This document shows, piece after piece, positions 9,368 to 64,000 of a DNA stretch of 64,000 nt. The first letter of the stretch is position 1. The number at the start of each line of letters is the position of its first letter. Under the pieces are notes generated by a model. That model saw nothing but the letters and a program-made list of their open reading frames with translations, ran no database searches and was not told the origin of the DNA. The position numbers and the translations under genes were made by a program. Source of the stretch: Yuukianura sp. NJ FZ-2021 (Eukaryota); the NCBI GenBank assembly GCA_046563655.1, contig JAJCTO010000011.1, forward strand, positions 496,001 through 560,000, given 5' to 3'.

Positions 9368-9368
9368 A

Positions 9369-28690: not shown

Positions 28691-28897
28691 CTTTGGACCT
28701 TAAAATAACTCAGCAGAACGTACTGAATTAGAAAATGGTAACTTTCTAGAAGATAACCGGAACGTATTCACCTTAAGTACCCCCGAATGCTCAGGGTAGG
28801 GCCCACAAAGTGGCAGGACAGAAGGTGAAATGTTGACTGGATCCGGTCCTGTAGTCTCCTACGGCTGTCTGTTACCTCCGCTCAAAGGGTCACCAAA

Positions 28898-30945: not shown

Positions 30946-31408
30946 TCGCGGTAGGACTGTTCCGTCGACGTTTTTCGGATCTGGTAATCCTGTTTCTGGA
31001 GATTCCAACATTTTCCCAAAATCCGAGCGCGCGAAAATACCTTCATCGGATTGTGAGCCACTGTGACCAATGCTTACAACTGAGAATTTGTATGAAAGAT
31101 CCGTAATCGCTAGAAGAACGACGGAAAAATAGTTTTTGTAGTTGAAGTACGTTGTTCCAGAAAATCTTGGACTTTGAATTCTTATATGTTTCCCATCGAT
31201 TGCTCCACACGCATTAGGAAAATTCCACTTTTCTTTGAATCCGAGTTCATTTGTAGTCCACATTTCCTTGGTAGGTTTTGGCAAATAAATTGGACCAAGA
31301 TGGTGAAAGATGGAAGGCATGACTTCTCTCAAAATTTTGCAAATTGAGAACGGTGAAATTCGATAGCTCATAGCAAGTGAAATCTGTGAATTCCCAGTGG
31401 CAAGGTAT
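30946..31408 (-). pseudogene. PIF/Harbinger (HARBI1-like) DDE transposase exon, 3'-truncated
   Basis: YLATGNS..L, WNFPNACGAIDGKHIRI, YFNYKNYFSVVLLA, G..SD.GIF; splice acceptor T10-AAATTTAG ending at 31409; homology lost after GTVLP, before the GDxAF motif. Confidence 0.85.
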
Positions 31409-31428
31409 CTAAATTTAAAAAAAAAACG

Positions 31429-31812
31429 TCAATCAGACCTTAGTTGAAAAATATTTTCAACAACACTGGTTTCAAAAAACCACTTGAAGATCCTCAAACT
31501 AGACAAATGTCCCTATTTTTGTAGTCTGTCTCCATAGCGTCAAATTAAAATTGCTATCTTGGCACAATTCCGTTCCTCAGGATTCAATCAGACCTTAGTT
31601 GAAAAATATTTTCAACAACACTGGTTTCAAAAAACCACTTGAAGATCCTCAAACTAGACAAATGTCCCTATTTTTGTAGTCTGTCTCCATAGCGTCAAAT
31701 TAAAATTGCTATCTTGGCACAATTCCGTTCCTCAGGATTCAATCAGACCTTAGTTGAAAAATATTTTCAACAACACTGGTTTCAAAAAACCACTTGAAGA
31801 TCCTCAAACTAG
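31429..31812 (-). repeat. Satellite B, ~2.5 monomers in inverted orientation
   Basis: Reverse complement of the 155-bp consensus; switches strand at a shared TAG (31810-31812). Confidence 0.95.
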
Positions 31813-34800
31813 CAATTTTAATTTGACGCTATGGAGACAGACTACAAAAATAGGGACATTTGTCTAGTTTGAGGATCTTCAAGTGGTTTTTTGAAACCAG
31901 TGTTGTTGAAAATATTTTTCAACTAAGGTCTGATTGAATCCTGAGGAACGGAATTGTGCCAAGATAGCAATTTTAATTTGACGCTATGGAGACAGACTAC
32001 AAAAATAGGGACATTTGTCTAGTTTGAGGATCTTCAAGTGGTTTTTCGAAACCAGTGTTGTTGAAAATATTTTTCAACTAAGGTCTGATTGAATCCTGAG
32101 GAACGGAATTGTGCCAAGATAGCAATTTTAATTTGACGCTATGGAGACAGACTACAAAAATAGGGACATTTGTCTAGTTTGAGGATCTTCAAGTGGTTTT
32201 TTGAAACCAGTGTTGAAAATATTTTTCAACTAAGGTCTGATTGAATCCTGAGGAACGGAATTGTGCCAAGATAGCAATTTTAATTTGACGCTATGGAGAC
32301 AGACTACAAAAATAGGGACATTTGTCTAGTTTGAGGATCTTCAAGTGGTTTTTTGAAACCAGTGTTGTTGAAAATATTTTTCAACTAAGGTCTGATTGAA
32401 TCCTGAGGAACGGAATTGTGCCAAAATAGCAATTTTAATTTGACGCTATGGAGCCAGACTACAAAAATAGGGACATTTGTCTAGTTTGAGGATCTTCAAG
32501 TGGTTTTTTGAAACCAGTGTTGTTGAAAATATTTTACAACTAAGGTCTGAAATTCAATCATGAGGAACGGAATTGTGCCAAGATAGCAATTTTAATTTGA
32601 CGCTATGGAGACAGACTACAAAAATAGGGACATTTGTCTAGTTTGAGGATCTTCAAGTGGTTTTTTGAAACCAGTGTTGTTGAAAATATTTTTCAACTAA
32701 GGTCTGATTGAATCCTGAGGAACGGAATTGTGCCAAGATAGCAATTTTAATTTGACGCTATGGAGACAGACTACAAAAATAGGGACATTTGTCTAGTTTG
32801 AGGATCTTCAAGTGGTTTTTTGAAACCAGTGTTGTTGAAAATATTTTTCAACTACGGTCTGATTGAATCCTGAGGAACGGAATTGTGCCAAGATAGCAAT
32901 TTTAATTTGACGCTATGGAGACAGACTACAAAAATAGGGACATTTGTCTAGTTTGAGGATCTTCAAGTGGTTTTTTGAAACCAGTGTTAAAAATATTTTT
33001 CAACTAAGGTCTGATTGAATCCTGAGGAACGGAATTGTGCCAAGATAGCAATTTTAATTTGACGCTATGGAGACAGACTACAAAAATAGGGACATTTGTC
33101 TAGTTTGAGGATCTTAAAGTGGTTTTTTGAAACCAGTGTTGTTGAAAATATTTTTCAACTAAGGTCTGATTGAATCCTGAGGAACGGAATTGTGCCAAGA
33201 TAGAAATTTTAATTCGACGCTATGGAGACAGACTACAAAAATAGGGACATTTGTCTGGTTTGAGGATCTTCAAGTGGTTTTTTGAAACCAGTGTTGTTGA
33301 AAATATTTTTCAACTAAGGTCTGATTGAATCCTGAGGTACGGAATTGTGCCAAGATAGCAATTTTAATTTGACGCTATGGAGACAGACTACAAAAATAGG
33401 GACATTTGTCTAGTTTGAGGATCTTCAAGTGGTTTTTTGAAACCAGTGTTGAAAATATTTTTCAACTAAGGTCTGATTGAATCCTGAGGAACGAAATTGT
33501 GCCAAGATAGCGATTCTAATTTGACGCTATGGAGACAGACTACAAAAATAGGGACATTTGTCTAGTTTGAGGATCTTCAAGTGGTTTTTTGAAACCAGTG
33601 TTGTTGAAAATATTTTTCAACTAAGGTCTGATTGAATCCTGAGGAACGGAATTGTGCCAAGATAGCAATTTTAATTTGACGCTATGGAGACAGACTACAA
33701 AAATAGGGACATTTGTCTAGTTTGAGGATCTTCAAGTGGTTTTTTGAAACCAGTGTTGTTGAAAATATTTTTCAACTAAGGTCTGAAACTCAATCATGAG
33801 GAACGGAATTGTACCAAGATAGCAATTTTAATTTGACGCTATGGAGACAGACTACAAAAATAATGACTTTTGTCTAGTTTGAGGATCTTCAAGTGGTTTT
33901 TTGAAACCAGTGTTGTTGAAAATATTTTTCAACTAAGGTCTGAAACTCAATCATGAGGAACGGAATTGTGCCAAGATAGCAATTTTAATTTGACGCTATG
34001 GAGACAGACTACAAAAATAATGACTTTTGTCTAGTTTGAGGATCTTCAAGTGGTTTTTTGAAACCAGTGTTGTTGAAAATATTTTTCAACTAAGGTCTGA
34101 TTGAATCCTGAGGAACGGAATTGTGCCAAGATAGCAATTTTAATTTGACGCTATGGAGACAGACTACAAAAATAGGGACATTTGTCTAGTTTGAGGATCT
34201 TCAAGTGGTTTTTTGAAACCAGTGTTGTTGAAAATATTTTTCAACTAAGGTCTGATTGAATCCTGAGGAACGGAATTGTGCCAAGATAGCAATTTTAATT
34301 TGACGCTATGGAGACAGACTACAAAAATAGGGACATTTGTCTAGTTTGAGGATCTTCAAGTGGTTTTTTGAAACCAGTGTTGTTGAAAATATTTTTCAAC
34401 TAAGGTCTGATTGAATCCTGAGGAACGGAATTGTGCCAAGATAGCAATTTTAATTTGACGCTATGGAGACAGACTACAAAAATAGGGACATTTGTCTAGT
34501 TTGAGGATCTTCAAGTGGTTTTTTGAAACCAGTGTTGTTGAAAATATTTTTCAACTAAGGTCTGAAACTCAATCATGAGGAACGGAATTGTACCAAGATA
34601 GCAATTTTAATTTGACGCTATGGAGACAGACTACAAAAATAATGACTTTTGTCTAGTTTGAGGATCTTCAAGTGGTTTTTTGAAACCAGTGTTGTTGAAA
34701 ATATTTTTCAACTAAGGTCTGAAACTCAATCATGAGGAACGGAATTGTGCCAAGATAGCAATTTTAATTTGACGCTATGGAGACAGACTACAAAAATAAT

Positions 34801-37800
34801 GACTTTTGTCTAGTTTGAGGATCTTCAAGTGGTTTTTTGAAACCAGTGTTGTTGAAAATATTTTTCAACTAAGGTCTGATTGAATCCTGAGGAACGGAAT
34901 TGTGCCAAGATAGCAATTTTAATTTGACGCTATGGAGACAGACTACAAAAATAGGGACATTTGTCTAGTTTGAGGATCTTCAAGTGGTTTTTTGAAACCA
35001 GTGTTGTTGAAAATATTTTTCAACTAAGGTCTGATTGAATCCTGAGGAACGGAATTGTGCCAAGATAGCAATTTTAATTTGACGCTATGGAGACAGACTA
35101 CAAAAATAGGGACATTTGTCTAGTTTGAGGATCTTCAAGTGGTTTTTCGAAACCAGTGTTGTTGAAAATATTTTTCAACTAAGGTCTGATTGAATACTGA
35201 GGAACGGAATTGTGCCAAGATAGCAATTTTAATTTGACGCTATGGAGACAGACTACAAAAATAGGGACATTTGTCTAGTTTGAGGATCTTCAAGTGGTTT
35301 TTTGAAACCAGTGTTGTTGAAAATATTTTTCAACTAAGGTCTGATTGAATCCTGAGGAACGGAATTGTGCCAAGATAGCAATTTTAATTTGACGCTATGG
35401 AGACAGACTACAAAAATAGGGACATTTGTCTAGTTTGAGGATCTTCAAGTGGTTTTTTGAAACCAGTGTTGTTGAAAATATTTTTCAACTAAGGTCTGAT
35501 TGAATCCTGAGGAACGGAATTGTGCCAAGATAGCAATTTTAATTTGACGCTATGGAGACAGACTACAAAAATAGGGACATTTGTCTAGTTTGAGGATCTT
35601 CAAGTGGTTTTTTGAAACCAGTGTTGTTGAAAATATTTTTCAACTAAGGTCTGATTGAATCCTGAGGAACGGAATTGTGCCAAGATAGCAATTTTAATTT
35701 GACGCTATGGAGACAGACTACAAAAATAGGGACATTTGTCTAGTTTGAGGATCTTCAAGTGGTTTTTTGAAACCAGTGTTGAAAATATTTTTCAACTAAG
35801 GTCTGATTGAATCCTGAGGAACGGAATTGTGCCAAGATAGCAATTTTAATTTGACGCTATGGAGACAGACTACAAAAATAGGGACATTTGTCTAGTTTGA
35901 GGATCTTCAAGTGGTATTTTGAAACCAGTGTTGTTGAAAATATTTTTCAACTAAGGTCTGATTGAATCCTGAGGAACGGAATTGTGCCAAGATAGCAATT
36001 TTAATTTGACGCTATGGAGACAGACTACAAAAATAGGGACATTTGTCTAGTTTGAGGATCTTCAAGTGGTTTTTTGAAACCAGTGTTGTTGAAAATATTT
36101 TTCAACTAAGGTCTGATTGAATCCTGAGGAACGGAATTGTGCCAAGATAGCAATTTTAATTTGACGCTATGGAGACAGACTACAAAAATAGGGACATTTG
36201 TCTAGTTTGAGGATCTTCAAGTGGTTTTTCGAAACCAGTGTTGTTGAAAATATTTTTCAACTAAGGTCTGATTGAATCCTGAGGAACGGAATTGTGCCAA
36301 GATAGCAATTTTAATTTGACGCTATGGAGACAGACTACAAAAATAGGGACATTTGTCTAGTTTGAGGATCTTCAAGTGGTTTTTTGAAACCAGTGTTGTT
36401 GAAAATATTTTTCAACTAAGGTCTGATTGAATCCTGAGGAACGGAATTGTGCCAAGATAGCAATTTTAATTTGACGCTATGGAGACAGACTACAAAAATA
36501 GGGACATTTGTCTAGTTTGAGGATCTTCAAGTGGTTTTTTGAAACCAGTGTTGTTGAAAATATTTTTCAACTAAGGTCTGATTGAATCCTGAGGAACGGA
36601 ATTGTGCCAAGATAGCAATTTTAATTTGACGCTATGGAGACAGACTACAAAAATAGGGACATTTGTCTAGTTTGAGGATCTTCAAGTGGTTTTTTGAAAC
36701 CAGTGTTGTTGAAAATATTTTTCAACTAAGGTCTGATTGAATCCTGAGGAACGGAATTGTGCCAAGATAGCAATTTTAATTTGACGCTATGGAGACAGAC
36801 TACAAAAATAGGGACATTTGTCTAGTTTGAGGATCTTCAAGTGGTTTTTTGAAACCAGTGTTGTTGAAAATATTTTTCAACTAAGGTCTGATTGAATCCT
36901 GAGGAACGGAATTGTGCCAAGATAGCAATTTTAATTTGACGCTATGGAGACAGACTACAAAAATAGGGACATTTGTCTAGTTTGAGGATCTTCAAGTGGT
37001 TTTTTGAAACCAGTGTTGTTGAAAATATTTTTCAACTAAGGTCTGATTGAATCCTGAGGAACGGAATTGTGCCAAGATAGCAATTTTAATTTGACGCTAT
37101 GGAGACAGACTACAAAAATAGGGACATTTGTCTAGTTTGAGGATCTTCAAGTGGTTTTTTGAAACCAGTGTTGTTGAAAATATTTTTCAACTAAGGTCTG
37201 ATTGAATCCTGAGGAACGGAATTGTGCCAAGATAGCAATTTTAATTTGACGCTATGGAGACAGACTACAAAAATAGGGACATTTGTCTAGTTTGAGGATC
37301 TTCAAGTGGTTTTTCGAAACCAGTGTTGTTGAAAATATTTTTCAACTACGGTCTGATTGAATACTGAGGAACGGAATTGTGCCAAGATAGCAATTTTAAT
37401 TTGACGCTATGGAGACAGACTACAAAAATAGGGACATTTGTATAGTTTGAGGATCTTCAAGTGGTTTTTTGAAACCAGTGTTGTTGAAAATATTTTTCAA
37501 CTAAGGTCTGATTGAATCCTGAGGAACGGAATTGTGCCAAGATAGCAATATTAATTTGACGCTATGGAGAAAGACTACAAAAATAGGGACATTTGTCTAG
37601 TTTGAGGATCTTAAAGTGGTTTTTTGAAACCAGTGTTGTTGAAAATATTTTTCAACTAAGGTCTGATTGAATCCTGAGGAACGGAATTGTGCCAAGATAG
37701 CAATTTTAATTTGACGCTATGGAGACAGACTACAAAAATAGTGACATTTGTCTAGTTTGAGGATCTTCAAGTGGTTTTTTGAAACCAGTGTTGTTGAAAA

Positions 37801-39166
37801 TATTTTTCAACTAAGGTCTGATTGAATCCTGAGGAACGGAATTGTGCCAAGATAGCAATTTTAATTTGACGCTATGGAGACAGACTACAAAAATAGGGAC
37901 ATTTGTCTAGTTTGAGGATCTTCAAGTGGTTTTTTGAAACCAGTGTTGTTGAAAATATTTTTCAACTAAGGTCTGATTGAATCCTGAGGAACGGAATTGT
38001 GCCAAGATAGCAATTTTAATTTGACGCTATGGAGACAGACTACAAAAATAGGGACATTTGTCTAGTTTGAGGATCTTCAAGTGGTTTTTTGAAACCAGTG
38101 TTGTTGAAAATATTTTTCAACTAAGGTCTGATTGAATCCTGAGGAACGGAATTGTGCCAAGATAGCAATTTTAATTTGACGCTATGGAGACAGACTACAA
38201 AAATAGGGACATTTGTCTAGTTTGAGGATCTTCAAGTGGTTTTTTGAAACCAGTGTTGTTGAAAATATTTTTCAACTAAGGTCTGATTGAATCCTGAGGA
38301 ACGGAATTGTGCCAAGATAGCAATTTTAATTTGACGCTATGGAGACAGACTACAAAAATAGGGACATTTGTCTAGTTTGAGGATCTTCAAGTGGTTTTTT
38401 GAAACCAGTGTTGTTGAAAATATTTTTCAACTAAGGTCTGAAATTCAATCCTGAGGAACGGAATTGTGCCAAGATAGCAATTTTAATTTGACGCTATGGA
38501 GACAGACTACAAAAATAGGGACATTTGTCTAGTTTGAGGATCTTCAAGTGGTTTTTTGAAACCAGTGTTGTTGAAAATATTTTTCAACTAAGGTCTGATT
38601 GAATCCTGAGGAACGGAATTGTGCCAAGATAGCAATTTTAATTTGACGCTATGGAGACAGACTACAAAAATAGGGACATTTGTCTAGTTTGAGGATCTTC
38701 AAGTGGTTTTTTGAAACCAGTATTGAAAATATTTTTCAACTAAGGTCTGATTGAATCCTGAGGAACGGAATTGTGCCAAGATAGCAATTTTAATTTGACG
38801 CTATGGAGACAGACTACAAAAATAGGGACATTTGTCTAGTTTGAGGATCTTAAAGTGGTTTTTTGAAACCAGTGTTGTTGAAAATATTTTTCAACTAAGG
38901 TCTGATTGAATCCTGAGGAACGGAATTGTGCCAAGATAGCAATTTTAATTTGACGCTATGGAGACAGACTACAAAAATAGGGACATTTGTCTGGTTTGAG
39001 GATCTTCAAGTGGTTTTTTGAAACCAGTGTTGTTGAAAATATTTTTCAACTAAGGTCTGATTGAATCCTGAGGAACGGAATTGTGCCAAGATAGCAATTT
39101 TAATTTGACGCTATGGAGACAGACTACAAAAATAGTGACATTTGTCTAGTTTGAGGATCTTCAAGT
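31810..39166 (+). repeat. Satellite B, 155-bp monomer, left block (~47 copies)
   Basis: 155-bp period (36541 to 38401 = 12 units); 152-bp and 157-bp variants present. Confidence 0.98.
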
Positions 39167-42100
39167 TTTTATTTAACATAACAGAACTGAAAAAACTTAC
39201 ACCTGCCAGAGGCAGGTTGAGGTATTTAAAGACGTATTGAAAAAATTTTTAAATCATATAAATTTCGTAGAGTTCTTTTCCTGACGGTAGGGTACCCAAT
39301 ATAGAAGTGGCATTTCCTCTTTGGATGGCAAGGCTAATTCGTTGAAAGAGGAAGGATGTTGCTCGATTGTCACCGGTGGCTTCTGAGAGGCGATGTCCAA
39401 TGGAATTGAGTAGACGTCGGCCTTCTTCCCCGTAGACTCCAGTTGTCTCGACTGCAATGATGGAAACAATAAATCGATGATCAAGGTCACGGTAGAGGTC
39501 ATGCTTATGGATTTCAGCAACGGCAGCAGGATGACCGAGAACGGAGGATGATGTTGCTAGGTAGGACGCAGCGAAGGTGTCACGGCAGGTAAAGTCCCAG
39601 GCAAGGGAGCGACCGGACTTCCAAGGAATGAGAGTGATTCCATCAGGTCGCTTTCCATCAGTTCTGGAACAGCCGGAAGGTTCTTTCATACATGGTATTC
39701 CACTTGTTTGAAGCGATCTTGAAATGATGTCGTTTACAGCGGCGTGTCTTGAATGTCTGCCTGCACTTCTCGTACAGCTTAGGCCGTGCAAGCCGTTGCT
39801 TGATACCAAAGTTCCGCATGGACATCGATGAGGTTGGCAAATTTCGGTGCCTAGCCGCAATCCACAAGAAATTCTGAAGGTTTCGTCTGAAAGGAGCGTC
39901 CCAAGAGGCGAAGATGGAATAGCCAGTAGCCAATCTCCAGAATGAGGGGCGGCTGAAGCAAGCAGTCGTGCTTTATCGATGGGAGTGGTTGATTTCTCCA
40001 GCAGGTTGGAGTAGATTTTTTCGAAGATCTGAATTTCCCAGAGTTTTTGTATTTTTCCATCTTGCGGCGTTATGAAGTCCAAATTTGACCAACTGAGGGA
40101 AGCAAGGTCCACTGACTTATCGAAAGGCGAAAGATGTGGTGGAAGGAAGGTAGAAATTAGTTCGGCACAACTATAGACTGAAGCCAAAAAGGAAAATGTA
40201 GCACAGTCCGTCGCGTGGCGAATGCCTAAACCCCCTTGATTCACAGGCAAAGAAGACTGCAACCATGCTTCTTCATTCAAACTTGAGTTCAGGATGGATT
40301 CCAACACGGTGCGTAAAGCTGAGTCGTAAGCTTGTAGGAGGTCAGGTTCGAGGAATGCAGGAGAACATCTGACAAAGTACAGAAGTCTTGGTGTTGAAAT
40401 TGATGCCCTAAGTAGAAAAAACGCTACATGGGCTGGCAGGCAAGAGAGTCTTGATGAAAGTCTGTTGAAGTCATCAGTTTTGGATTTGAGGATACGACGT
40501 GAAGATTCTTTGAACAGAGGCGCTCCCAACAGTTCCGATTGTCCTTTCTCGGGGAAGACGAACTCCGGCGAAATCGATTTGAAGGAGTTGGTGATTAACT
40601 TTTGTTCAGACTGGTCGGCAGACAGAATGATTACTTCGCATTTCTTCATGTTCAAATGCAGACCAAAAGAACTGGCACTAGATTGGATGGTTATGAGGTT
40701 TTTGAGCACAACATCTGGAGAGTCGCCAATTGTCGCGTCGTCTAAGTACCACGAATTGAATTCGGTCGTTAGGGATGCGGCTAGTGGGTGAATTGTTAGT
40801 GCGAAAAGTGCAGGACCCAATGGGCAACCTTGTTGGACTCCTAACTTGGACTTGATGCAGCTAGAGTTGTAGAAGAGGTCTGATTCGAACGAGTATGCTT
40901 GAGAGACGAAATTGAAGATTTCTGGTAGATGAGTTTTCACAGCATTCAGCATTTGATCTCTTCTGATAAGATTAAAGGCGTTTCGAAAATCCAACTTCAG
41001 AAGAACCTTGGGAGAGGCGTGATTGGCGTTGCAGAAGATCCTGGCAGCATGAGCCACGGCTTCGGCTCCGTTCTTGACGCCGACGCCTGTTTGAATTGGA
41101 TGTAGGATGGACGAAATGGCGTTCATTGAGCGCGACAGGATTAGCTTCGACACTAGGCGTCTCCAGGTGAGGCCGATTGCAATTGGCCGGATTCCACCTT
41201 TTTCTTCTGAATCGCAATAAGGGAAGCACCGAAGAACACAGGCCGGATGTCGACAGGAAGAGAATCATTAGCGATGAGATTGCACAGCTTGGAAATTGAA
41301 GATAGCAGCGCTAAACCTGCATCTCCTGATGATTTTGATGTAAGTTCTTTTAGTATTTGAGGACGAAGCGAGTCAAGGCCACCGGAAGAACCATTTGGGA
41401 ATGAAGAGATAGATTTCAGGATGTCACTTTCTTCGAAAATGATGTTTGTTGGAGAAGGTGGGTCTGGCATGACGGTTGGTAGAGGATGAGCCGGGTGTAA
41501 CTCGTGGAGGGCTTCAATAGTGGAGGAGTCATCCGATGCCAAACAGTCATCAGAACAGAGAACTCGAATGGATCCACGAATGTCGCCGTCCGCTAGTTTA
41601 GATTGAACGAGTTTGGAACAATTCCAGTGTTGGGATGATGGCAAGTAGCGGGGGAGATTATGAGTTGATGGTGAGTTGAAGAACGTAGACGATGAGGAGG
41701 AGAAGCGGGTGACATTTGACTTCACCCATTTGGTCAGATTTGGAACAGGGTCTTCTTTTTTCGGAAGATGTAGTGCAGCATATGGAAAAAAGAAAAGCCT
41801 TTCCCACGATTCCGAGGAGTTTTCGGTAACGACTTGTTCTATGACGGCGGAGAGTGTGGATGCCACAACTTGTCTAGCTCCCTTGGGGATGTGTTTGAGA
41901 ATTTGAATTGATTTTTTCAAAAGTGCGAGTCGTGAACCAATAGTAAGATCCGGAGATGATGATTGAGCAGTGGGGTCCAAAAATGTAATCCCAAGATACG
42001 ATTGTTCAATGTGTTTCCGTCCGCTCGCCCTTGTTTTGGTGATATTTGGAAATATCTTCAAAAGTTTTGAACCCATGGTTGTGTCAGCTAGTGGTTTGAT

Positions 42101-42835
42101 ATGAATTGATGCACAAAAGCGGTGGTATTTGTCTTTAAATTCCTGCTTTTTCATCAAGCCACCGGAGACAAGGCGGATATTGTTTGAGATCCAGTCGTCA
42201 CTTAGTTTGGAAATTACAGATTTGCTTCGATTCTTGGAAGTAGAAGTACGATTGGAGAATGTCTGATGTCTGGCTGAATCGTCAACTCCCAATCCGCAGT
42301 CATCTAATGATGACCCGATTCCGGGAATCTCCACGATTGTAATGTCACGGATCGATGTTTCTGGGTCGTTTTGAACGACATTGGGATCAGACGAACAGTC
42401 AAAAGTAAAGTTGGTTTGAGAGTCTTGATTCGGATGAATGTTTGAACTGAAGTTTTCCATTCTCTCACTTGTTGTTGTTGTCAAGGTTATGCGAATGATA
42501 ATTGTGAATTCGGAATTTTTCGAAGAAAAATTAGTGAAGGCCCAATGTTGTCCAGGAGATAAGCAATTGATGATTTGTTTGTTTGAGTTATGATGTCTTG
42601 AGAGCGAATTTTGGAGTCAGAATTTCAGGACTTTGGTTGACGAAAGTGGGCCAGTTGACAAGTGTCCGGTTGTAAAATGCATGTAGAAGCACATCAAAGG
42701 ATGCGCGACAATGAGATGAACAATCTGATATGAAAATGATGGACTTTTGTACTAAATTCACTCAGAAAACAATCAAAAACTCGGGAGCGAATTTTTGCGT
42801 GTCAACAGATTGTTTGTTTTATTTCGTGGTTAATA
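39167..42835 (-). mobile_element. CRE-like RLE non-LTR retrotransposon (3.67 kb) inserted in satellite B
   Basis: TSD ATCTTCAAGT at 39157-39166 and 42836-42845 (last T ambiguous with the A tail); 3' end AAATAAAA; RT plus C-terminal restriction-like endonuclease. Confidence 0.92.
39249..42484 (-). pseudogene. Single ORF (winged-helix / RT / zinc knuckle / PD-D endonuclease) with a 1-bp frameshift at ~41200
   Basis: GSSGGLDSLRP, GGIRPIAIG..RRLVSK (after the shift), QTGVG, LDFRNAFN, GVQQGCPLGP, WYLDD, GGLGI, CPC..H..C..RH, RPDG..WDFT. Confidence 0.9.
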
Positions 42836-45800
42836 ATCTTCAAGTGGTTTTTTGAAACCAGTGTTGAAAATATTTTTCAACTAAGGTCTCGTTGAATCCT
42901 GAGGAACGGAATTGTGCCAAGATAGCAATTTTAATTTGACGCTATGGAGACAGACTACAAAAATAGGGACATTTGTCTAGTTTGAGGATCTTCAAGTGGT
43001 TTTTCGAAACCAGTGTTGTTGAAAATATTTTTCAACTACGGTCTGATTGAATACTGAGGAACGGAATTGTGCCAAGATAGCAATTTTAATTTGACGCTAT
43101 GGAGACAGACTACAAAAATAGGGACATTTGTCTGGTTTGAGGATCTTCAAGTGGTTTTTTGAAACCAGTGTTGTTGAACATATTTTTCAACTAAGGTCTG
43201 ATTGAATCCTGAGGAACGGAATTGTGCCAAGATAGCAATTTTAATTTGACGCTATGGAGACAGACTACAAAAATAGGGACATTTGTCTAGTTTGAGGATC
43301 TTCAAGTGGTTTTTTGAAACCAGTGTTGTTGAAAATATTTTTCAACTAAGGTCTGAAATTGAATCCTGAGGAACGGAATTGTGCCAAGATAGCAATTTTA
43401 ATTTGACGCTATGGAGACAGACTACAAAAATAGGGACATTTGTCTAGTTTGAGGATCTTCAAGTGGTTTTTTGAAACCAGTGTTGTTGAAAATATTTTTC
43501 AACTACGGTCTGATTGAATCCTGAGGAACGGAATTGTGCCAAGATAGCAATTTTAATTTGACGCTATGGAGACAGACTACAAAAATAGGGACATTTGTCT
43601 AGTTTGAGGATCTTCAAGTGGTTTTTGAAACCAGTGTTGTTGAAAATATTTTTCAACTAAGGTCTGATTGAATCCTGAGGAACGGAATTGTGCCAAGATA
43701 GCAATTTTAATTTGACGCTATGGAGACAGACTACAAAAATAGGGACATTTGTCTAGTTTGAGGATCTTCAAGTGGTTTTTTGAAACCAGTGTTGTTGAAA
43801 ATATTTTTCAACTAAGGTCTGATTGAATCCTGAGGAACGGAATTGTGCCAAGATAGCAATTTTAATTTGACGCTATGGAGACAGACTACAAAAATAGGGA
43901 CATTTGTCTAGTTTGAGGATCTTCAAGTGGTTTTTTGAAACCAGTGTTGAAAATATTTTTCAACTAAGGTCTGATTGAATCCTGAGGAACGGAATTGTGC
44001 CAAGATAGCAATTTTAATTTGACGCTATGGAGACAGACTACAAAAATAGGGACATTTGTCTGGTTTGAGGATCTTCAAGTGGTTTTTTGAAACCAGTGTT
44101 GTTGAAAATATTTTTCAACTAAGGTCTGATTGAATCCTGAGGAACGGAATTGTGCCAAGATAGCAATTTTAATTTGACGCTATGGAGACAGACTACAAAA
44201 ATAGGGACATTTGTCTAGTTTGAGGATCTTCAAGTGGTTTTTTGAAACCAGTGTTGTTGAAAATATTTTTCAACTAAGGTCTGATTGAATCCTGAGGAAC
44301 GGAATTGTGCCAAGATAGCAATTTTAATTTGACGCTATGGAGACAGACTACAAAAATAGGGACATTTGTCTAGTTTGAGGATCTTCAAGTGGTTTTTCGA
44401 AACCAGTGTTGTTGAAAATATTTTTCAACTAAGGTCTGATTGAATACTGAGGAACGGAATTGTGCCAAGATAGCAATTTTAATTTGACGCTATGGAGACA
44501 GACTACAAAAATAGGGACATTTGTCTGGTTTGAGGATCTTCAAGTGGTTTTTTGAAACCAGTGTTGTTGAAAATATTTTTCAACTAAGGTCTGATTGAAT
44601 CCTGAGGAACGGAATTGTGCCAAGATAGCAATTTTAATTTGACGCTATGGAGACAGACTACAAAAATAGGGACATTTGTCTAGTTTGAGGATCTTCAAGT
44701 GGTTTTTTGAAACCAGTGTTGTTGAAAATATTTTTCAACTAAGGTCTGATTGAATCCTGAGGAACGGAATTGTGCCAAGATAGCAATTTTAATTTGACGC
44801 TATGGAGACAGACTACAAAAATAGGGACATTTGTCTAGTTTGAGGATCTTCAAGTGGTTTTTTGAAACCAGTGTTGTTGAAAATATTTTTCAACTAAGGT
44901 CTGATTGAATCCTGAGGAACGGAATTGTGCCAAGATAGCAATTTTAATTTGACGCTATGGAGACAGACTACAAAAATAGGGACATTTGTCTAGTTTGAGG
45001 ATCTTCAAGTGGTTTTTTGAAACCAGTGTTGTTGAAAATATTTTTCAACTAAGGTCTGATTGAATCCTGAGGAACGGAATTGTGCCAAGATAGCAATTTT
45101 AATTTGACGCTATGGAGACAGACTACAAAAATAGGGACATTTGTCTAGTTTGAGGATCTTCAAGTGGTTTTTTGAAACCAGTGTTGTTGAAAATATTTTT
45201 CAACTAAGGTCTGATTGAATCCTGAGGAACGGAATTGTGCCAAGATAGCAATTTTAATTTGACGCTATGGAGACAGACTACAAAAATAGGGACATTTGTC
45301 TAGTTTGAGGATCTTCAAGTGGTTTTTTGAAACCAGTGTTGGAAAATATTTTTCAACTAAGGTCTGATTGAATCCTGAGGAACGGAATTGTGCCAAGATA
45401 GCAATTTTAATTTGACGCTATGGAGACAGACTACAAAAATAGGGACATTTGTCTAGTTTGAGGATCTTCAAGTGGTTTTTTGAAACCAGTGTTGTTGAAA
45501 ATATTTTTCAACTAAGGTCTGATTGAATCCTGAGGAACGGAATTGTGCCAAGATAGCAATTTTAATTTGACGCTACGGAGACAGACTACAAAAATAGGGA
45601 CATTTGTCTAGTTTGAGGATCTTCAAGTGGTTTTTTGAAACCAGTGTTGAAAATATTTTTCAACTAAGGTCTGATTGAATCCTGAGGAACGGAATTGTGC
45701 CAAGATAGCAATTTTAATTTGACGCTATGGAGACAGACTACAAAAATAGGGACATTTGTCTGGTTTGAGGATCTTCAAGTGGTTTTTTGAAACCAGTGTT

Positions 45801-48800
45801 GTTGAAAATATTTTTCAACTAAGGTCTGATTGAATCCTGAGGAACGGAATTGTGCCAAGATAGCAATTTTAATTTGACGCTATGGAGACAGACTACAAAA
45901 ATAGGGACATTTGTCTAGTTTGAGGATCTTCAAGTGGTTTTTGAAACCAGTGTTGAAAATATTTTTCAACTAAGGTCTGATTGAATCCTGAGGAACGGAA
46001 TTGTGCCAAGATAGCAATTTTAATTTGACGCTATGGAGACAGACTACAAAAATAGGGACATTTGTCTAGTTTGAGGATCTTCAAGTGGTTTTTTGAAACC
46101 AGTGTTGTTGAAAATATTTTTCAACTAAGGTCTGAAATTCAATCCTGAGGAACGGAATTGTACCAAGATAGCAATTTTAATTTGACGCTATGGAGACAGA
46201 CTACAAAAATAGGGACATTTGTCTAGTTTGAGGATCTTCAAGTGGTTTTTTAAAACCAGTGTTGTTGAAAATATTTTTCAACTAAGGTCTGATTGAATCC
46301 TGAGGAACGGAATTGTGCCAAGATAGCAATTTTAATTTGACGCTATGGAGACAGACTACAAAAATAGGGACATTTGTCTAGTTTGAGGATCTTCAAGTGG
46401 TTTTTTGAAACCAGTGTTGTTGAAAATATTTTTCAACTAAGGTCTGATTGAATCCTGAGGAACGGAATTGTGCCAAGATAGCAATTTTAATTTGACGCTA
46501 TGGAGACAGACTACAAAAATAGGGACATTTGTCTGGTTTGAGGATCTTCAAGTGGTTTTTTGAAACCAGTGTTGTTGAAAATATTTTTCAACTAAGGTCT
46601 GATTGAATCCTGAGGAACGGAATTGTGCCAAGATAGCAATTTTAATTTGACGCTATGGAGACAGACTACAAAAATAGGGACATTTGTCTAGTTTGAGGAT
46701 CTTCAAGTGGTTTTTTGAAACCAGTATTGTTGAAAATATTATTCAACTAAGGTCTGATTGAATCCTGAGGAACGGAATTGTGCCAAGATAGCAATTTTAA
46801 TTTGACGCTATGGAGACAGACTACAAAAATAGGGACATTTGTCTAGTTTGAGGATCTTCAAGTGGTTTTTTGAAACCAGTGTTGTTGAAAATATTTTTCA
46901 ACTAAGGTCTGATTGAATCCTGAGGAACGGAATTGTGCCAAGATAGCAATTTTAATTTGACGCTATGGAGACAGACTACAAAAATAGGGACATTTGTCTA
47001 GTTTGAGGATCTTCAAGTGGTTTTTTGAAACCAGTGTTGTTGAAAATATTTTTCAACTAAGGTCTGATTGAATCCTGAGGAACGGAATTGTGCCAAGATA
47101 GCAATTTTAATTTGACGCTATGGAGACAGACTACAAAAATAGGGACATTTGTCTAGTTTGAGGATCTTCAAGTGGTTTTTTGAAACCAGTGTTGTTGAAA
47201 ATATTTTTCAACTAAGGTCTGATTGAATCCTGAGGAACGGAATTGTGCCAAGATAGCAATTTTAATTTGACGCTATGGAGACAGACTACAAAAATAGGGA
47301 CATTTGTCTAGTTTGAGGATCTTCAAGTGGTTTTTTGAAACCAGTGTTGTTGAAAATATTTTTCAACTAAGGTCTGATTGAATCCTGAGGAACGGAATTG
47401 TGCCAAGATAGCAATTTTAATTTGACGCTATGGAGACAGACTACAAAAATAGGGACATTTGTCTAGTTTGAGGATCTTCAAGTGGTTTTTTGAAACCAGT
47501 GTTGTTGAAAATATTTTTCAACTAAGGTCTGATTGAATCCTGAGGAACGGAATTGTGCCAAGATAGCAATTTTAATTTGACGCTATGGAGACAGACTACA
47601 AAAATAGGGACATTTGTCTAGTTTGAGGATCTTCAAGTGGTTTTTTGAAACCAGTGTTGTTGAAAATATTTTTCAACTAAGGTCTGATTGAATCCTGAGG
47701 AACGGAATTGTGCCAAGATAGCAATTTTAATTTGACGCTATGGAGACAGACTACAAAAATAGGGACATTTGTCTAGTTTGAGGATCTTCAAGTGGTTTTT
47801 TGAAACCAGTGTTGTTGAAAATATTTTTCAACTAAGGTCTGATTGAATCCTGAGGAACGGAATTGTGCCAAGATAGCAATTTTAATTTGACGCTATGGAG
47901 ACAGACTACAAAAATAGGGACATTTGTCTAGTTTGAGGATCTTCAAGTGGTTTTTTGAAACCAGTGTTGTTGAAAATATTTTTCAACTAAGGTCTGATTG
48001 AATCCTGAGGAACGGAATTGTGCCAAGATAGCAATTTTAATTTGACGCTATGGAGACAGACTACAAAAATAGGGACATTTGTCTAGTTTGAGGATCTTCA
48101 AGTGGTTTTTTGAAACCAGTGTTGTTGAAAATATTTTTCAACTAAGGTCTGATTGAATCCTGAGGAACGGAATTGTGCCAAGATAGCAATTTTAATTTGA
48201 CGCTATGGAGACAGACTACAAAAATAGGGACATTTGTCTAGTTTGAGGATCTTCAAGTGGTTTTTTGAAACCAGTGTTGTTGAAAATATTTTTCAACTAA
48301 GGTCTGATTGAATCCTGAGGAACGGAATTGTGCCAAGATAGCAATTTTAATTTGACGCTATGGAGACAGACTACAAAAATAGGGACATTTGTCTAGTTTG
48401 AGGATCTTCAAGTGGTTTTTTGAAACCAGTGTTGTTGAAAATATTTTTCAACTAAGGTCTGATTGAATCCTGAGGAACGGAATTGTGCCAAGATAGCAAT
48501 TTTAATTTGACGCTATGGAGACAGACTACAAAAATAGGGACATTTGTCTAGTTTGAGGATCTTCAAGTGGTTTTTTGAAACCAGTGTTGTTGAAAATATT
48601 TTTCAACTAAGGTCTGATTGAATCCTGAGGAACGGAATTGTGCCAAGATAGCAATTTTAATTTGACGCTATGGAGACAGACTACAAAAACAGGGACATTT
48701 GTCTAGTTTGAGGATCTTCAAGTGGTTTTTTGAAACCAGTGTTGAAAATATTTTTCAACTAAGGTCTCGTTGAATCCTGAGGAACGGAATTGTGCCAAGA

Positions 48801-51800
48801 TAGCAATTTTAATTTGACGCTATGGAGACAGACTACAAAAATAGGGACATTTGTCTAGTTTGAGGATCTTCAAGTGGTTTTTCGAAACCAGTGTTGTTGA
48901 AAATATTTTTCAACTACGGTCTGATTGAATACTGAGGAACGGAATTGTTCCAAGATAGCAATTTTAATTTGACGCTATGGAGACAGACTACAAAAATAGG
49001 GACATTTGTCTAGTTTGAGGATCTTCAAGTGGTTTTTTGAAACCAGTGTTGTTGAAAATATTTTACAACTAAGGTCTGAAATTCAATCATGAGGAACGGA
49101 ATTGTGCCAAGATAGCAATTTTAATTTGACGCTATGGAGACAGACTACAAAAATAGGGACATTTGTCTAGTTTGAGGATCTTCAAGTGGTTTTTTGAAAC
49201 CAGTGTTGTTGAAAATATTTTTCAACTACGGTCTGATTGAATCCTGAGGAACGGAATTGTGCCAAGATAGCAATTTTAATTTGACGCTATGGAGACAGAC
49301 TACAAAAATAGGGACATTTGTCTAGTTTGAGGATCTTCAAGTGGTTTTTTGAAACCAGTGTTGAAAATATTTTTCAACTAAGGTCTGATTGAATCCTGAG
49401 GAACGGAATTGTGCCAAGATAGCAATTTTAATTTGACGCTATGGAGACAGACTACAAAAATAGGGACATTTGTCTAGTTTGAGGATCTTCAAGTGGTTTT
49501 TTGAAACCAGTGTTGTTGAAAATATTTTTCAACTAAGGTCTGATTGAATCCTGAGGAACGGAATTGTGCCAAGATAGCAATTTTAATTTGACGCTATGGA
49601 GACAGACTACAAAAATAGGGACATTTGTCTAGTTTGAGGATCTTCAAGTGGTTTTTTGAAACCAGTGTTGAAAATATTTTTCAACTAAGGTCTGATTGAA
49701 TCCTGAGGAACGGAATTGTGCCAAGATAGCAATTTTAATTTGACGCTATGGAGACAGACTACAAAAATAGGGACATTTGTCTGGTTTGAGGATCTTCAAG
49801 TGGTTTTTTGAAACCAGTGTTGTTGAAAATATTTTTCAACTAAGGTCTGATTGAATCCTGAGGAACGGAATTGTGCCAAGATAGCAATTTTAATTTGACG
49901 CTATGGAGACAGACTACAAAAATAGGGACATTTGTCTAGTTTGAGGATCTTCAAGTGGTTTTTTGAAACCAGTGTTGAAAATATTTTTCAACTAAGGTCT
50001 GATTGAATCCTGAGGAACGGAATTGTGCCAAGATAGCAATTTTAATTTGACGCTATGGAGACAGACTACAAAAATAGGGACATTTGTCTAGTTTGAGGAT
50101 CTTCAAGTGGTTTTTTGAAACCAGTGTTGTTGAAAATATTTTTCAACTAAGGTCTGAAATTCAATCATAAGCAACGGAATTGTACCAAGATAGCAATTTT
50201 AATTTGACGCTATGGAGACAGACTACAAAAATAGGGACATTTGTCTGGTTTGAGGATCTTCAAGTGGTTTTTTAAAACCAGTGTTGTTGAAAATATTTTT
50301 CAACTAAGGTCTGATTGAATCCTGAGGAACGGAATTGTGCCAAGATAGCAATTTTAATTTGACGCTATGGAGACAGACTACAAAAATAGGGACATTTGTC
50401 TAGTTTGAGGATCTTCAAGTGGTTTTTTGAAACCAGTGTTGAAAATATTTTTCAACTAAGGTGTGATTGAATCCTGAGGAACGGAATTGGGCCAAGATAG
50501 CAATTTTAATTTGACGCTATGGAGACAGACTACAAAAATAGGGACATTTGTCTGGTTTGAGGATCTTCAAGTGGTTTTTTGAAACCAGTGTTGTTGAAAA
50601 TATTTTTCAACTAAGGTCTGATTGAATCCTGAGGAACGGAATTGTGCCAAGATAGCAATTTTAATTTGACGCTATGGAGACAGACTACAAAAATAGGGAC
50701 ATTTGTCTAGTTTGAGGATCTTCAAGTGGTTTTTGAAACCAGTGTTGTTGAAAATATTTTTCAACTAAGGTCTGATTGAATCCTGAGGAACGGAATTGTG
50801 CCAAGATAGCAATTTTAATTTGACGCTATGGAGACAGACTACAAAAATAGGGACATTTGTCTAGTTTGAGGATCTTCAAGTGGTTTTTTGAAACCAGTGT
50901 TGTTGAAAATATTTTTCAACTAAGGTCTGATTGAATCCTGAGGAACGGAATTGTGCCAAGATAGCAATTTTAATTTGACGCTATGGAGACAGACTACAAA
51001 AATAGGGACATTTGTCTAGTTTGAGGATCTTCAAGTGGTTTTTTGAAACCAGTGTTGTTGAAAATATTTTTCAACTAAGGTCTGATTGAATCCTGAGGAA
51101 CGGAATTGTGCCAAGATAGCAATTTTAATTTGACGCTATGGAGACAGACTACAAAAATAGGGACATTTGTCTAGTTTGAGGATCTTCAAGTGGTTTTTTG
51201 AAACCAGTGTTGTTGAAAATATTTTTCAACTAAGGTCTGATTGAATCCTGAGGAACGGAATTGTGCCAAGATAGCAATTTTAATTTGACGCTATGGAGAC
51301 AGACTACAAAAATAGGGACATTTGTCTAGTTTGAGGATCTTCAAGTGGTTTTTTGAAACCAGTGTTGTTGAAAATATTTTTCAACTAAGGTCTGATTGAA
51401 TCCTGAGGAACGGAATTGTGCCAAGATAGCAATTTTAATTTGACGCTATGGAGACAGACTACAAAAATAGGGACATTTGTCTAGTTTGAGGATCTTCAAG
51501 TGGTTTTTTGAAACCAGTGTTGTTGAAAATATTTTTCAACTAAGGTCTGATTGAATCCTGAGGAACGGAATTGTGCCAAGATAGCAATTTTAATTTGACG
51601 CTATGGAGACAGACTACAAAAATAGGGACATTTGTCTAGTTTGAGGATCTTCAAGTGGTTTTTTGAAACCAGTGTTGTTGAAAATATTTTTCAACTAAGG
51701 TCTGATTGAATCCTGAGGAACGGAATTGTGCCAAGATAGCAATTTTAATTTGACGCTATGGAGACAGACTACAAAAATAGGGACATTTGTCTAGTTTGAG

Positions 51801-54800
51801 GATCTTCAAGTGGTTTTTTGAAACCAGTGTTGTTGAAAATATTTTTCAACTAAGGTCTGATTGAATCCTGAGGAACGGAATTGTGCCAAGATAGCAATTT
51901 TAATTTGACGCTATGGAGACAGACTACAAAAATAGGGACATTTGTCTAGTTTGAGGATCTTCAAGTGGTTTTTTGAAACCAGTGTTGTTGAAAATATTTT
52001 TCAACTAAGGTCTGATTGAATCCTGAGGAACGGAATTGTGCCAAGATAGCAATTTTAATTTGACGCTATGGAGACAGACTACAAAAATAGGGACATTTGT
52101 CTAGTTTGAGGATCTTCAAGTGGTTTTTTGAAACCAGTGTTGTTGAAAATATTTTTCAACTAAGGTCTGATTGAATCCTGAGGAACGGAATTGTGCCAAG
52201 ATAGCAATTTTAATTTGACGCTATGGAGACAGACTACAAAAATAGGGACATTTGTCTAGTTTGAGGATCTTCAAGTGGTTTTTTGAAACCAGTGTTGTTG
52301 AAAATATTTTTCAACTAAGGTCTGATTGAATCCTGAGGAACGGAATTGTGCCAAGATAGCAATTTTAATTTGACGCTATGGAGACAGACTACAAAAATAG
52401 GGACATTTGTCTAGTTTGAGGATCTTCAAGTGGTTTTTTGAAACCAGTGTTGTTGAAAATATTTTTCAACTAAGGTCTGATTGAATCCTGAGGAACGGAA
52501 TTGTGCCAAGATAGCAATTTTAATTTGACGCTATGGAGACAGACTACAAAAATAGGGACATTTGTCTAGTTTGAGGATCTTCAAGTGGTTTTTTGAAACC
52601 AGTGTTGTTGAAAATATTTTTCAACTAAGGTCTGATTGAATCCTGAGGAACGGAATTGTGCCAAGATAGCAATTTTAATTTGACGCTATGGAGACAGACT
52701 ACAAAAATAGGGACATTTGTCTAGTTTGAGGATCTTCAAGTGGTTTTTTAAAACCAGTGTTGTTGAAAATATTTTTCAACTAAGGTCTGATTGAATCCTG
52801 AGGAACGGAATTGTGCCAAGATAGCAATTTTAATTTGACGCTATGGAGACAGACTACAAAAATAGGGACATTTGTCTAGTTTGAGGATCTTCAAGTGGTT
52901 TTTTGAAACCAGTGTTGTTGAAAATATTTTTCAACTAAGGTCTGATTGAATCCTGAGGAACGGAATTGTGCCAAGATAGCAATTTTAATTTGACGCTATG
53001 GAGACAGACTACAAAAATAGGGACATTTGTCTAGTTTGAGGATCTTCAAGTGGTTTTTTGAAACCAGTGTTGTTGAAAATATTTTTCAACTAAGGTCTGA
53101 TTGAATCCTGAGGAACGGAATTGTGCCAAGATAGCAATTTTAATTTGACGCTATGGAGACAGACTACAAAAATAGGGACATTTGTCTAGTTTGAGGATCT
53201 TCAAGTGGTTTTTTGAAACCAGTGTTGTTGAAAATATTTTTCAACTAAGGTCTGATTGAATCCTGAGGAACGGAATTGTGCCAAGATAGCAATTTTAATT
53301 TGACGCTATGGAGACAGACTACAAAAATAGGGACATTTGTCTAGTTTGAGGATCTTCAAGTGGTTTTTTGAAACCAGTGTTGTTGAAAATATTTTTCAAC
53401 TAAGGTCTGATTGAATCCTGAGGAACGGAATTGTGCCAAGATAGCAATTTTAATTTGACGCTATGGAGACAGACTACAAAAATAGGGACATTTGTCTAGT
53501 TTGAGGATCTTCAAGTGGTTTTTTGAAACCAGTGTTGTTGAAAATATTTTTCAACTAAGGTCTGATTGAATCCTGAGGAACGGAATTGTGCCAAGATAGC
53601 AATTTTAATTTGACGCTATGGAGACAGACTACAAAAATAGGGACATTTGTCTAGTTTGAGGATCTTCAAGTGGTTTTTTGAAACCAGTGTTGTTGAAAAT
53701 ATTTTTCAACTAAGGTCTGATTGAATCCTGAGGAACGGAATTGTGCCAAGATAGCAATTTTAATTTGACGCTATGGAGACAGACTACAAAAATAGGGACA
53801 TTTGTCTAGTTTGAGGATCTTCAAGTGGTTTTTTGAAACCAGTGTTGTTGAAAATATTTTTCAACTAAGGTCTGATTGAATCCTGAGGAACGGAATTGTG
53901 CCAAGATAGCAATTTTAATTTGACGCTATGGAGACAGACTACAAAAATAGGGACATTTGTCTAGTTTGAGGATCTTCAAGTGGTTTTTTGAAACCAGTGT
54001 TGAAAATATTTTTCAACTAAGGTCTGATTGAATCCTGAGGAACGGAATTGTGCCAAGATAGCAATTTTAATTTGACGCTATGGAGACAGACTACAAAAAT
54101 AGGGACATTTGTCTAGTTTGAGGATCTTCAAGTGGTTTTTTGAAACCAGTGTTGTTGAAAATATTTTTCAACTAAGGTCTGATTGAATCCTGAGGAACGG
54201 AATTGTGCCAAGATAGCAATTTTAATTTGACGCTATGGAGACAGACTACAAAAATAGGGACATTTGTCTAGTTTGAGGATCTTCAAGTGGTTTTTTGAAA
54301 CCAGTGTTGTTGAAAATATTTTTCAACTAAGGTCTGATTGAATCCTGAGGAACGGAATTGTGCCAAGATAGCAATTTTAATTTGACGCTATGGAGACAGA
54401 CTACAAAAATAGGGACATTTGTCTAGTTTGAGGATCTTCAAGTGGTTTTTTGAAACCAGTGTTGTTGAAAATATTTTTCAACTAAGGTCTGATTGAATCC
54501 TGAGGAACGGAATTGTGCCAAGATAGCAATTTTAATTTGACGCTATGGAGACAGACTACAAAAATAGGGACATTTGTCTAGTTTGAGGATCTTCAAGTGG
54601 TTTTTTGAAACCAGTGTTGTTGAAAATATTTTTCAACTAAGGTCTGATTGAATCCTGAGGAACGGAATTGTGCCAAGATAGCAATTTTAATTTGACGCTA
54701 TGGAGACAGACTACAAAAATAGGGACATTTGTCTAGTTTGAGGATCTTCAAGTGGTTTTTTGAAACCAGTGTTGTTGAAAATATTTTTCAACTAAGGTCT

Positions 54801-63800: not shown

Positions 63801-64000
63801 AGTTTGAGGATCTTCAAGTGGTTTTTTGAAACCAGTGTTGTTGAAAATATTTTTCAACTAAGGTCTGATTGAATCCTGAGGAACGGAATTGTGCCAAGAT
63901 AGCAATTTTAATTTGACGCTATGGAGACAGACTACAAAAATAGGGACATTTGTCTAGTTTGAGGATCTTCAAGTGGTTTTTTGAAACCAGTGTTGTTGAA
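42836..64000 (+). repeat. Satellite B, 155-bp monomer, right block (~136 copies, runs off the window)
   Basis: Continuous, highly homogeneous tandem array with the same consensus as the left block. Confidence 0.98.

Follow-up and report, generated by a model that had tools for sequence, protein, structure and literature searches.

An inherited RFX-type winged helix at the N-terminus of retrotransposons with a restriction-like endonuclease, and its probable part in docking on target DNA

How does a retrotransposon find the site at which it inserts, and could a domain familiar from transcription factors find it? The question is posed by a stretch of DNA from Yuukianura sp. NJ FZ-2021 (GenBank assembly GCA_046563655.1, contig JAJCTO010000011.1, positions 496,001 to 560,000), which was analysed at its full length of 64,000 nucleotides and is called the window here. 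Within it a 155-bp satellite is interrupted by a retrotransposon without long terminal repeats (non-LTR) of 3669 bp, located at 39167..42835 on the reverse strand, and the protein of this element carries a winged helix of RFX type close to its N-terminus. We consider it probable that this is a functional domain, forming the N-terminal module of a retrotransposon with a restriction-like endonuclease (RLE) and most likely docking the protein on its target DNA.

An earlier note on the window had proposed an RFX-type winged helix at 41981-42205, and had named a Pfam search and structure prediction as checks. On the reverse strand these positions do give a stop-free translation that contains the quoted peptide, LSDDWISNNIRL...SYLGITF. 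The Pfam family PF02257 (RFX_DNA_binding) matches the 75-residue piece over profile positions 6-76 of 79 with 32.8 bits (E 1.1e-7; curated cutoff 27); with the whole 487-residue frame as query the score is 28.2 bits. The domain itself occupies 41984..42196 (reverse strand), about residues 89-159 of the open reading frame (ORF). A phmmer search of all PDB sequences gave human RFX5 (8zjr_M, E 1e-5) as the sole match at E ≤ 1. A 95-residue AlphaFold2 model, constructed without templates from an alignment that included 14 relatives, has a mean predicted local distance difference test score (pLDDT) of 89.7 and the order helix, strand, helix, helix, strand, strand. When the model was compared with the PDB by Foldseek, only two matches were obtained at E ≤ 0.001, RFX5 and RFX1. 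It superposes on RFX5 bound to the nucleosome with a root-mean-square deviation (rmsd) of 1.4 Å (template-modelling (TM) scores 0.77/0.89) and on the RFX1 DNA-binding domain in its co-crystal with the X-box (1dp7) with an rmsd of 1.5 Å (TM 0.70/0.86). The next-best match has E 0.11, and further down come winged helices of PadR type, of Orc/Cdc6 and of other kinds; the 50 ranks listed include no D5/P4 primase chain. Both checks thus returned what had been proposed, a winged-helix match and an RFX fold. Taken together, the Pfam match, the phmmer match to RFX5 and the fold search make the domain specifically one of RFX type, and confirm, at the level of sequence and predicted structure, that the window encodes an RFX-type winged helix.

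The domain shares its DNA-binding fold and Pfam family with the RFX transcription factors (RFX1-8, DAF-19). It differs from them in being fused to a retrotransposon polyprotein; by structural alignment it is 27% identical to RFX5 and 15% identical to RFX1. Pfam detected no RFX dimerisation region in the element protein. In RFX DNA-binding domains the basic residues of wing 1 contact the X-box. In the alignment with RFX5 the wing has kept one R and its GR, and other positions differ; basic residues persist in the wing of the window's domain (TRASGRKH).

The remainder of the protein identifies the element. Between the RFX domain and the reverse transcriptase (RT) lies a conserved N-terminal region (41198..41938; PKGAR ... 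NLT.WVK ... DGD ... GS.GG.D.LRPQ), which has invariant columns in the alignment. This region, of about 250 residues (approximately residues 175-421), is common to our query and 2655 representatives of a library of 1.84 billion proteins. The RT core (Pfam RVT_1; 40626..41201) scores 69.9 bits (E 3.1e-19, cutoff 29.6). A CCHC zinc knuckle (C-x-C ... H ... C; 39774..39824) and the core of a restriction-like endonuclease (E ... RPDG ... WDF ... K; 39492..39683) follow, all on the reverse strand. In the numbering of the C-terminal 217-residue segment, C27, H39 and C43 of the knuckle and E74, D87, D103 and K133 of the endonuclease are invariant among 42 sequences, and C29 is nearly so. The model of this segment has a pLDDT of 92.7, and all seven of its PDB matches by Foldseek at E ≤ 0.001 are R2 retrotransposon proteins, which it matches at the knuckle as well. 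No Pfam family for an APE-type endonuclease reaches its cutoff in the element protein. An RT with a CCHC knuckle and an R2-fold endonuclease, without APE, makes this an RLE non-LTR retrotransposon, and the earlier placement of the winged helix at the N-terminus of such a protein stands. Its observation that N-terminal zinc fingers and Myb domains are lacking agrees with the Pfam scan as well: upstream of the RT no family of either kind passes its cutoff, and the one further line listed there, zf-FCS, falls short with 13.4 bits against a cutoff of 22.4. The order in this single ORF is RFX, conserved N-terminal region, RT, CCHC knuckle, restriction-like endonuclease.

The insertion can be read to the base at both ends. 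On the reverse strand the satellite runs ...AAAAAACC ACTTGAAGAT and gives way to non-satellite sequence from 42835 downwards; the element ends ...TAAATAAAA at 39167 and the satellite picks up with ACTTGAAGAT CCTCAAAC. The 10-bp target-site duplication is therefore present upstream at 42836..42845 and downstream at 39157..39166, both on the reverse strand. In public contigs whose satellite is unbroken, 39156 is followed directly by 42836; 3679 bases are absent and 10 letters fit either side, and these empty sites confirm a 3669-bp insertion with a 10-bp duplication. The element has neither terminal repeats nor a poly(A) tail, and blastn and tblastn searches of the window with it found only itself, so that it is the sole copy there. 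Its 5′ untranslated region (UTR) of 375 nt (42461..42835) starts at the junction, and its 3′ UTR of 82 nt (39167..39248) contains a 7-bp GC-rich hairpin (39201-39217; both UTRs on the reverse strand). The fold of the 3′ UTR (-13.7 kcal/mol, z -1.85) is unremarkable, with 10 of 200 shuffles equally good. Rfam, with its ribosomal RNA (rRNA) families, gave no match at E ≤ 1 in 38900-43100, which covers the element with its 5′ UTR and its flanks; thus no HDV-like ribozyme or R2 RNA element was recognised. Read depth in the public contigs labelled X1, which is summed over contigs and gives no copy number, is about 785 for the element body, 6870 for its 3′ end and roughly 3-4 x 10^5 for the satellite. 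The 3′ end is thus about nine times deeper than the body, which fits many 5′-truncated copies. An insertion without LTRs, a 10-bp duplication and an excess of depth at the 3′ end together form the signature of target-primed reverse transcription.

The ATG at 42460 opens the ORF, which does not begin at 42484, the start given previously. Its first part (residues 1-421; 41198..42460, reverse strand) ends at a frame break in a run of five A (41199..41203), where two frames overlap, and the two frames together extend from the ATG to a stop at 39249-39251. The protein reads ...IQKKK before the break and ...GGIRPIAIG after it; relatives have an unbroken KK.GGIRPIA(V/I)G. Public contigs carry a one-base length variant at 41199-41203, which accounts for 785 of 785 by depth in X1, 19 of 19 in X3 and 608 of 2230 in X2; X3 comes from a second study, and its organism bears a different code. 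In the variant form both parts become one continuous frame of about 1070 residues. Hence the break is a peculiarity of this copy, or else the assembly has a homopolymer error here. The contigs of the two studies hold near-identical copies with the continuous frame, which suggests recent activity of the element; no RNA run holding it is listed among the public runs. We note that minority contigs of X1 and X2 skip 105 bases at 40172-40278, within the RT-linker region, an internal deletion variant among the copies.

Is the RFX domain peculiar to this copy? A search with the RT-endonuclease part found 448 relatives at E ≤ 1e-5 among 8000 candidates scored. In 8 of the best 120 of these, PF02257 is precomputed beside PF00078. 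A family-specific hidden Markov model (HMM) built from the family's own RFX segments located the domain in 11 of the same 120, which are 11 of the 38 with at least 90 residues upstream of the conserved region. It also located the domain in 6 of 143 further library representatives, and Pfam confirmed four of those six with 36.8-58.9 bits (the Pfam scan covered 89 of the 143, the family HMM alone the other 54). At least 17 related proteins carry the domain, as do 4 of 80 metagenome loci (597 matched stretches, of which 333 were confirmed and 80 kept). Across eight sequences the core residues W, Y, G, F and P of the domain never vary. The RFX segments of relatives are 20-31% identical to that of the window, and the RT-endonuclease parts of the RFX-bearing lineage 45-56% identical to that of the window's element. 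The earlier idea of a “captured” domain is unsupported in so far as the word suggests a local event, the domain being common to a lineage that has diverged this far; by these comparisons the RFX domain is an inherited feature of the lineage and not a one-off acquisition. Searches with the N-terminus returned little more. A word-based search with the 75-residue piece alone yielded no longer protein among 259 candidates at E ≤ 0.01, and a profile of four N-terminal proteins matched eight proteins, two of them with RFX and both found before. The nearest Protein Atlas clusters are unnamed RVT_1 clusters whose few labelled members include arthropods, sponges, cnidarians and plants; we treat these as leads only.

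Two of the RFX-bearing relatives come from the springtail Folsomia candida, and the source names of both are likely mis-annotations from a best hit. The full-length P0018, with RFX and RT, is named “RFX-like transcription factor daf-19”, and P0007 is named after R2 of Drosophila. In the closest RFX-bearing relative, L001, 13 copies of a 42-bp (14-codon) tandem repeat lie within the open frame, upstream of the RFX domain (645-1207).

The distribution of the domain was compared with a FastTree phylogeny of the RT-endonuclease part, from which the RFX columns were left out. Its 51 rows are the window's element and the 50 of 263 relatives with full RT-endonuclease coverage and at least 90 residues upstream of the conserved N-terminal region. 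The window's element groups with P0004 and P0005 (support 100), and a single set of 14 rows contains 12 of the 13 RFX rows. The RFX label requires four changes on the tree against a mean of 11.8 after shuffling, and none of 500 shuffles was as low. As the tree is midpoint-rooted, gain and loss of the domain are indistinguishable on it. Inside the cluster, the unlabelled row P0027 has a degenerate RFX-like stretch (8.6 bits). A further unlabelled row, P0035, has two C-x2-C...H-x3-5-H motifs, seen by eye, at the position of the RFX domain, and its precomputed Pfam label is RVT_1 only; judged from these motifs, P0035 appears to be a natural exchange of the N-terminal module. The sister group of the cluster has OTU and C2H2 domains, and further lineages carry N-terminal PHD, SAP or C2H2 domains. 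We also observed an N-terminal OTU protease in P0046, P0139 and P0159, adjoining a C2H2 finger in two of them, and a ubiquitin C-terminal hydrolase (UCH) after the endonuclease in P0167, P0171, P0172 and P0204; each is either a true fusion or a join made in gene calling.

It was then of interest where such an element stands among known ones; the earlier note called it CRE-like, a placement that we treat as a candidate one. The PDB sequences available for comparison are proteins of R2 and L1, and by sequence the RT is not close to R2. A single-sequence search of the PDB with the RT gave L1 ORF2p (E 9.7e-7) ahead of R2 (2.7e-5), and a three-sequence profile gave R2 (E 2.2e-11) ahead of L1 ORF2p (1.4e-9); on these scores the RT seems about equally distant from R2 and L1 ORF2. 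R2 (R2Bm, R2Tg) has the same single ORF with an N-terminal DNA-binding module, RT, CCHC knuckle and restriction-like endonuclease, and like the window's element it inserts in a tandemly repeated target. MoTeR and Cnl1, which target telomeric repeats, belong to the CRE clade, and the elements of that clade carry N-terminal zinc fingers. CRE-clade elements insert in spliced-leader genes or telomeres, whereas the window's element sits in a 155-bp satellite; the spliced-leader (or telomeric-repeat) insertion that marks the clade is not what we find. Like the window's element, the members of the clade (CRE1/2, SLACS, CZAR) bear an RLE; they are deep-branching and mostly target-specific, according to the sections of PMC4640811 used here. 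R2 elements have one to three zinc fingers with a Myb domain and insert in 28S rDNA (PMC7650587, in the part consulted), whereas the window's element has an RFX domain and a satellite target, and so shows neither of the features by which the R2 clade is recognised. The NeSL/Utopia/YURE and HERO groups are likewise RLE elements with variable N-terminal accessory domains, and some of their families are specific for microsatellites or U2-derived satellites. They have one to three N-terminal zinc fingers and sometimes an Ulp1 protease or RNase H; a winged helix is not reported in the same sections of PMC4640811, from which these descriptions are taken.

What the domain might do can be framed by its position. 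Zinc fingers and Myb domains at the N-terminus are the DNA binders of RLE elements, and in R2 and its kin such N-terminal modules hold the protein on its target during the nick that primes reverse transcription (PMC7650587 and PMC4640811, in the parts consulted). The winged helix occupies the place of the zinc fingers and/or Myb domain of R2, NeSL/Utopia and CRE elements, and most likely has the same role. On this proposal the RFX domain would anchor the protein to the double-stranded DNA of its target, close to where the element inserts; the endonuclease would nick the bottom strand between monomer positions 155 and 1, and the free 3′ end would prime reverse transcription of the element RNA. 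A cut of the top strand 10 bp further on would then give rise to the 10-bp duplication. The same place in the protein, the deep retention, a faster change than that of the enzyme core and the zinc-finger-like swap in an inner branch are our reasons for regarding the RFX domain as the lineage's probable reader of target DNA. We infer that the window's copy binds DNA, at a site of its own, and that it determines the target.

A bolder version of the proposal, which we consider less likely than not, is that the RFX-bearing elements form an unrecognised RLE lineage in which the winged helix has taken over target reading from zinc fingers and Myb, the window's member being naturally specific for its satellite. 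In that case the monomer would offer a defined motif for the RFX domain to dock on, and two copies of the protein would cut the strands 10 bp apart. If so, nature would have retargeted an R2-like machine by giving it a DNA reader that is new, compact and possibly exchangeable.

The target is an array of the 155-bp satellite at 31810..64000 (Tandem Repeats Finder; no strand assigned), with 101 exact occurrences of the consensus monomer. The duplication places the first nick, that of the bottom strand, between monomer positions 155 and 1; the cut in the top strand lies 10 bp downstream. An 8+3+8 palindrome, GTTGAAAA-ATA-TTTTCAAC, at monomer positions 117-135 ends 20 bp upstream of the first nick; arms as long were obtained in 66 of 3000 shuffles. 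A 6+4+6 palindrome abuts the nick. An X-box-like sequence, GTCTCCATAGCGTC, at monomer positions 47-60, lies 46 bp downstream of it. These three motifs are candidate landing sites. The base-precise junction speaks for a possible satellite specificity of the element. Among the loose ends listed for the runs of the organism coded A, none leads from 39166 into other sequence, with 82 more beyond those listed. Three contigs (one of X3, two of X4; 39096-39232) have in common the satellite flank together with the final 66 bases of the element, 3′ hairpin included, beyond which they run into other sequence. They resemble separate inserts at one and the same position, and may represent a different or non-autonomous element with the same 3′ end and insertion position. 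As an alternative to specificity, the inserts could have multiplied along with the satellite array. Public contigs stop or diverge at 42813-42815, which is 20-22 bases inside the 5′ end of the element.

Several observations weigh against docking by the RFX domain or against satellite specificity. The wing of the window's domain departs from the family consensus, and the domain is the weakest Pfam scorer in the family (32.8 bits against 36.8-58.9 in four relatives above the cutoff). The RFX-bearing P0036 falls outside the tree cluster, so that either the domain was gained more than once or the FastTree topology is imperfect. A scan of the monomer with the X-box consensus gave no convincing RFX site: the X-box-like sequence matches the consensus at 12 of 14 positions, which is no better than chance, as 13.6% of shuffled monomers do equally well, and four other X-box spacings give nothing at two mismatches or fewer. 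The window's roughly 200 monomers hold only one insertion. One contig of organism B departs from the element at 42813 into 787 letters of other sequence, and one X4 contig departs from its 3′ region at 39193 into non-satellite sequence. In the metagenome relatives the flanks are too short to reveal the targets (5′ side 79-1377 bp, 3′ side 85-411 bp), and neither a satellite nor a convincing terminal direct repeat is seen in them.

Other roles for the domain were considered. It is conceivable, although we think it rather unlikely, that the RFX domain binds DNA or chromatin without choosing the nick site: it would tether the protein to heterochromatin or satellite, together with a PHD finger, or would act on the element's own promoter, and the endonuclease or other parts would set the position. 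In P0007, P0009, P0124 and P0127 a PHD finger directly precedes RFX, and in P0008 and P0023 Cys/His patterns resembling PHD come before it. Across the wider family no N-terminal domain is commoner than PHD alone (11 of 89 scanned proteins at or above the cutoff), the insertion lies in a transposon-rich region beside a large satellite, and no significant X-box is near it. All of this would suit a tether. However, RFX occurs without PHD in the window's element, P0005, P0010 and P0036, which indicates that it can stand alone. The base-precise junction and the fixed 10-bp stagger fit recognition of sequence near the site, and one lineage of the cluster has zinc-finger-like motifs at the RFX position; these points, too, favour a docking module over a tether.

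Repurposing of the domain for the element's own RNA or an RNA/DNA hybrid, or as a dimerisation or scaffold part only, with no role on target DNA, seems to us improbable. The departure of the window's wing from the canonical RRLG.RG of RFX5, and the presence of a small stable hairpin in the 3′ UTR, would be consistent with it. So would the lower identity of the domain than of the RT part, which marks it as faster evolving, but fast change is also expected of a specificity module. Against repurposing, the modelled domain and DNA-bound RFX structures superpose at 1.4-1.5 Å, and the wing has kept basic residues. In the solved R2 complexes the RNA is held by other parts of the protein. We give next to no credence to the idea that there is no real feature here, the similarity being due to chance or to an RFX exon of a host gene joined on by the element or the assembly. 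The whole-frame Pfam score is just 1.2 bits above its cutoff and the word-based search with the 75-residue piece found no longer protein, yet Pfam, phmmer and the fold search agree independently on RFX, with no other fold match below E 0.1. The domain is moreover in frame and inside the boundaries set by the target-site duplication, the contigs of the second study carry the same sequence, and at least 17 relatives of other origin have the same arrangement.

The surroundings of the element deserve brief mention. The first 2.5 satellite monomers (31429-31812), 100% identical to each other, run opposite to the main array, which gives a head-to-head junction near 31810. The array shows a higher-order period of 465-467 bp (three monomers), and its monomers are 98% alike from 58808 onwards and 87% before. 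The non-satellite half of the window consists of other mobile elements (23373-28699, 14432-16153, 3969-4964 and 30781-31428, all on the reverse strand). These comprise a BEL/Pao-type LTR retrotransposon (Peptidase_A17, RT, integrase zinc domain, DUF5641, DUF1759), a second DUF5641/integrase fragment and an rve integrase; a DDE_Tnp_4 (Harbinger-like) transposase directly adjoins the satellite. Three long frames on the forward strand (52-2346, 7605-9023 and 9267-10706; 764, 472 and 479 residues) match no Pfam family at E ≤ 0.001.

To our knowledge, target reading by site-specific non-LTR retrotransposons has been described only for zinc-finger and Myb modules. The same elements are the model for target-primed reverse transcription. 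The earlier note knew of no description of the present architecture, and a literature search bears this out: no paper was found that combines RFX with retrotransposon terms in its full text, Repbase and Dfam lying outside this search. The RLE inventory of Fell et al., as mentioned in the portion of PMC13580325 consulted, may list such elements. The only paper mentioning “RFX” among the matches listed for a broader search (20 of 35) was PMC12129022, which in the portion consulted deals with L1-derived exons in host genes. Accessory domains described for RLE clades are zinc fingers, Myb, Ulp1 protease and RNase H (PMC4640811, PMC7650587 and PMC13580325, in the sections consulted). Annotation pipelines had already detected the domain, as precomputed Pfam labels and one source name (transcription factor) among the relatives attest. 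The Folsomia candida element that bears the name of an RFX transcription factor is a warning to annotators.

An RFX domain on a lineage of RLE elements suggests an undescribed way of choosing a landing site. Site-specific non-LTR retrotransposons are under development for gene insertion (PMC13580325, in the part consulted; PMC13586686 is listed as a further review), and RFX offers a second, structurally understood DNA reader to test. Its retention at the same position over deep divergence, with zinc-finger-like motifs in one member, would mean that the reader module is exchangeable in nature. If the satellite targeting is true, the element also bears on how satellites, possibly including centromeric arrays, acquire and keep retrotransposons of their own.

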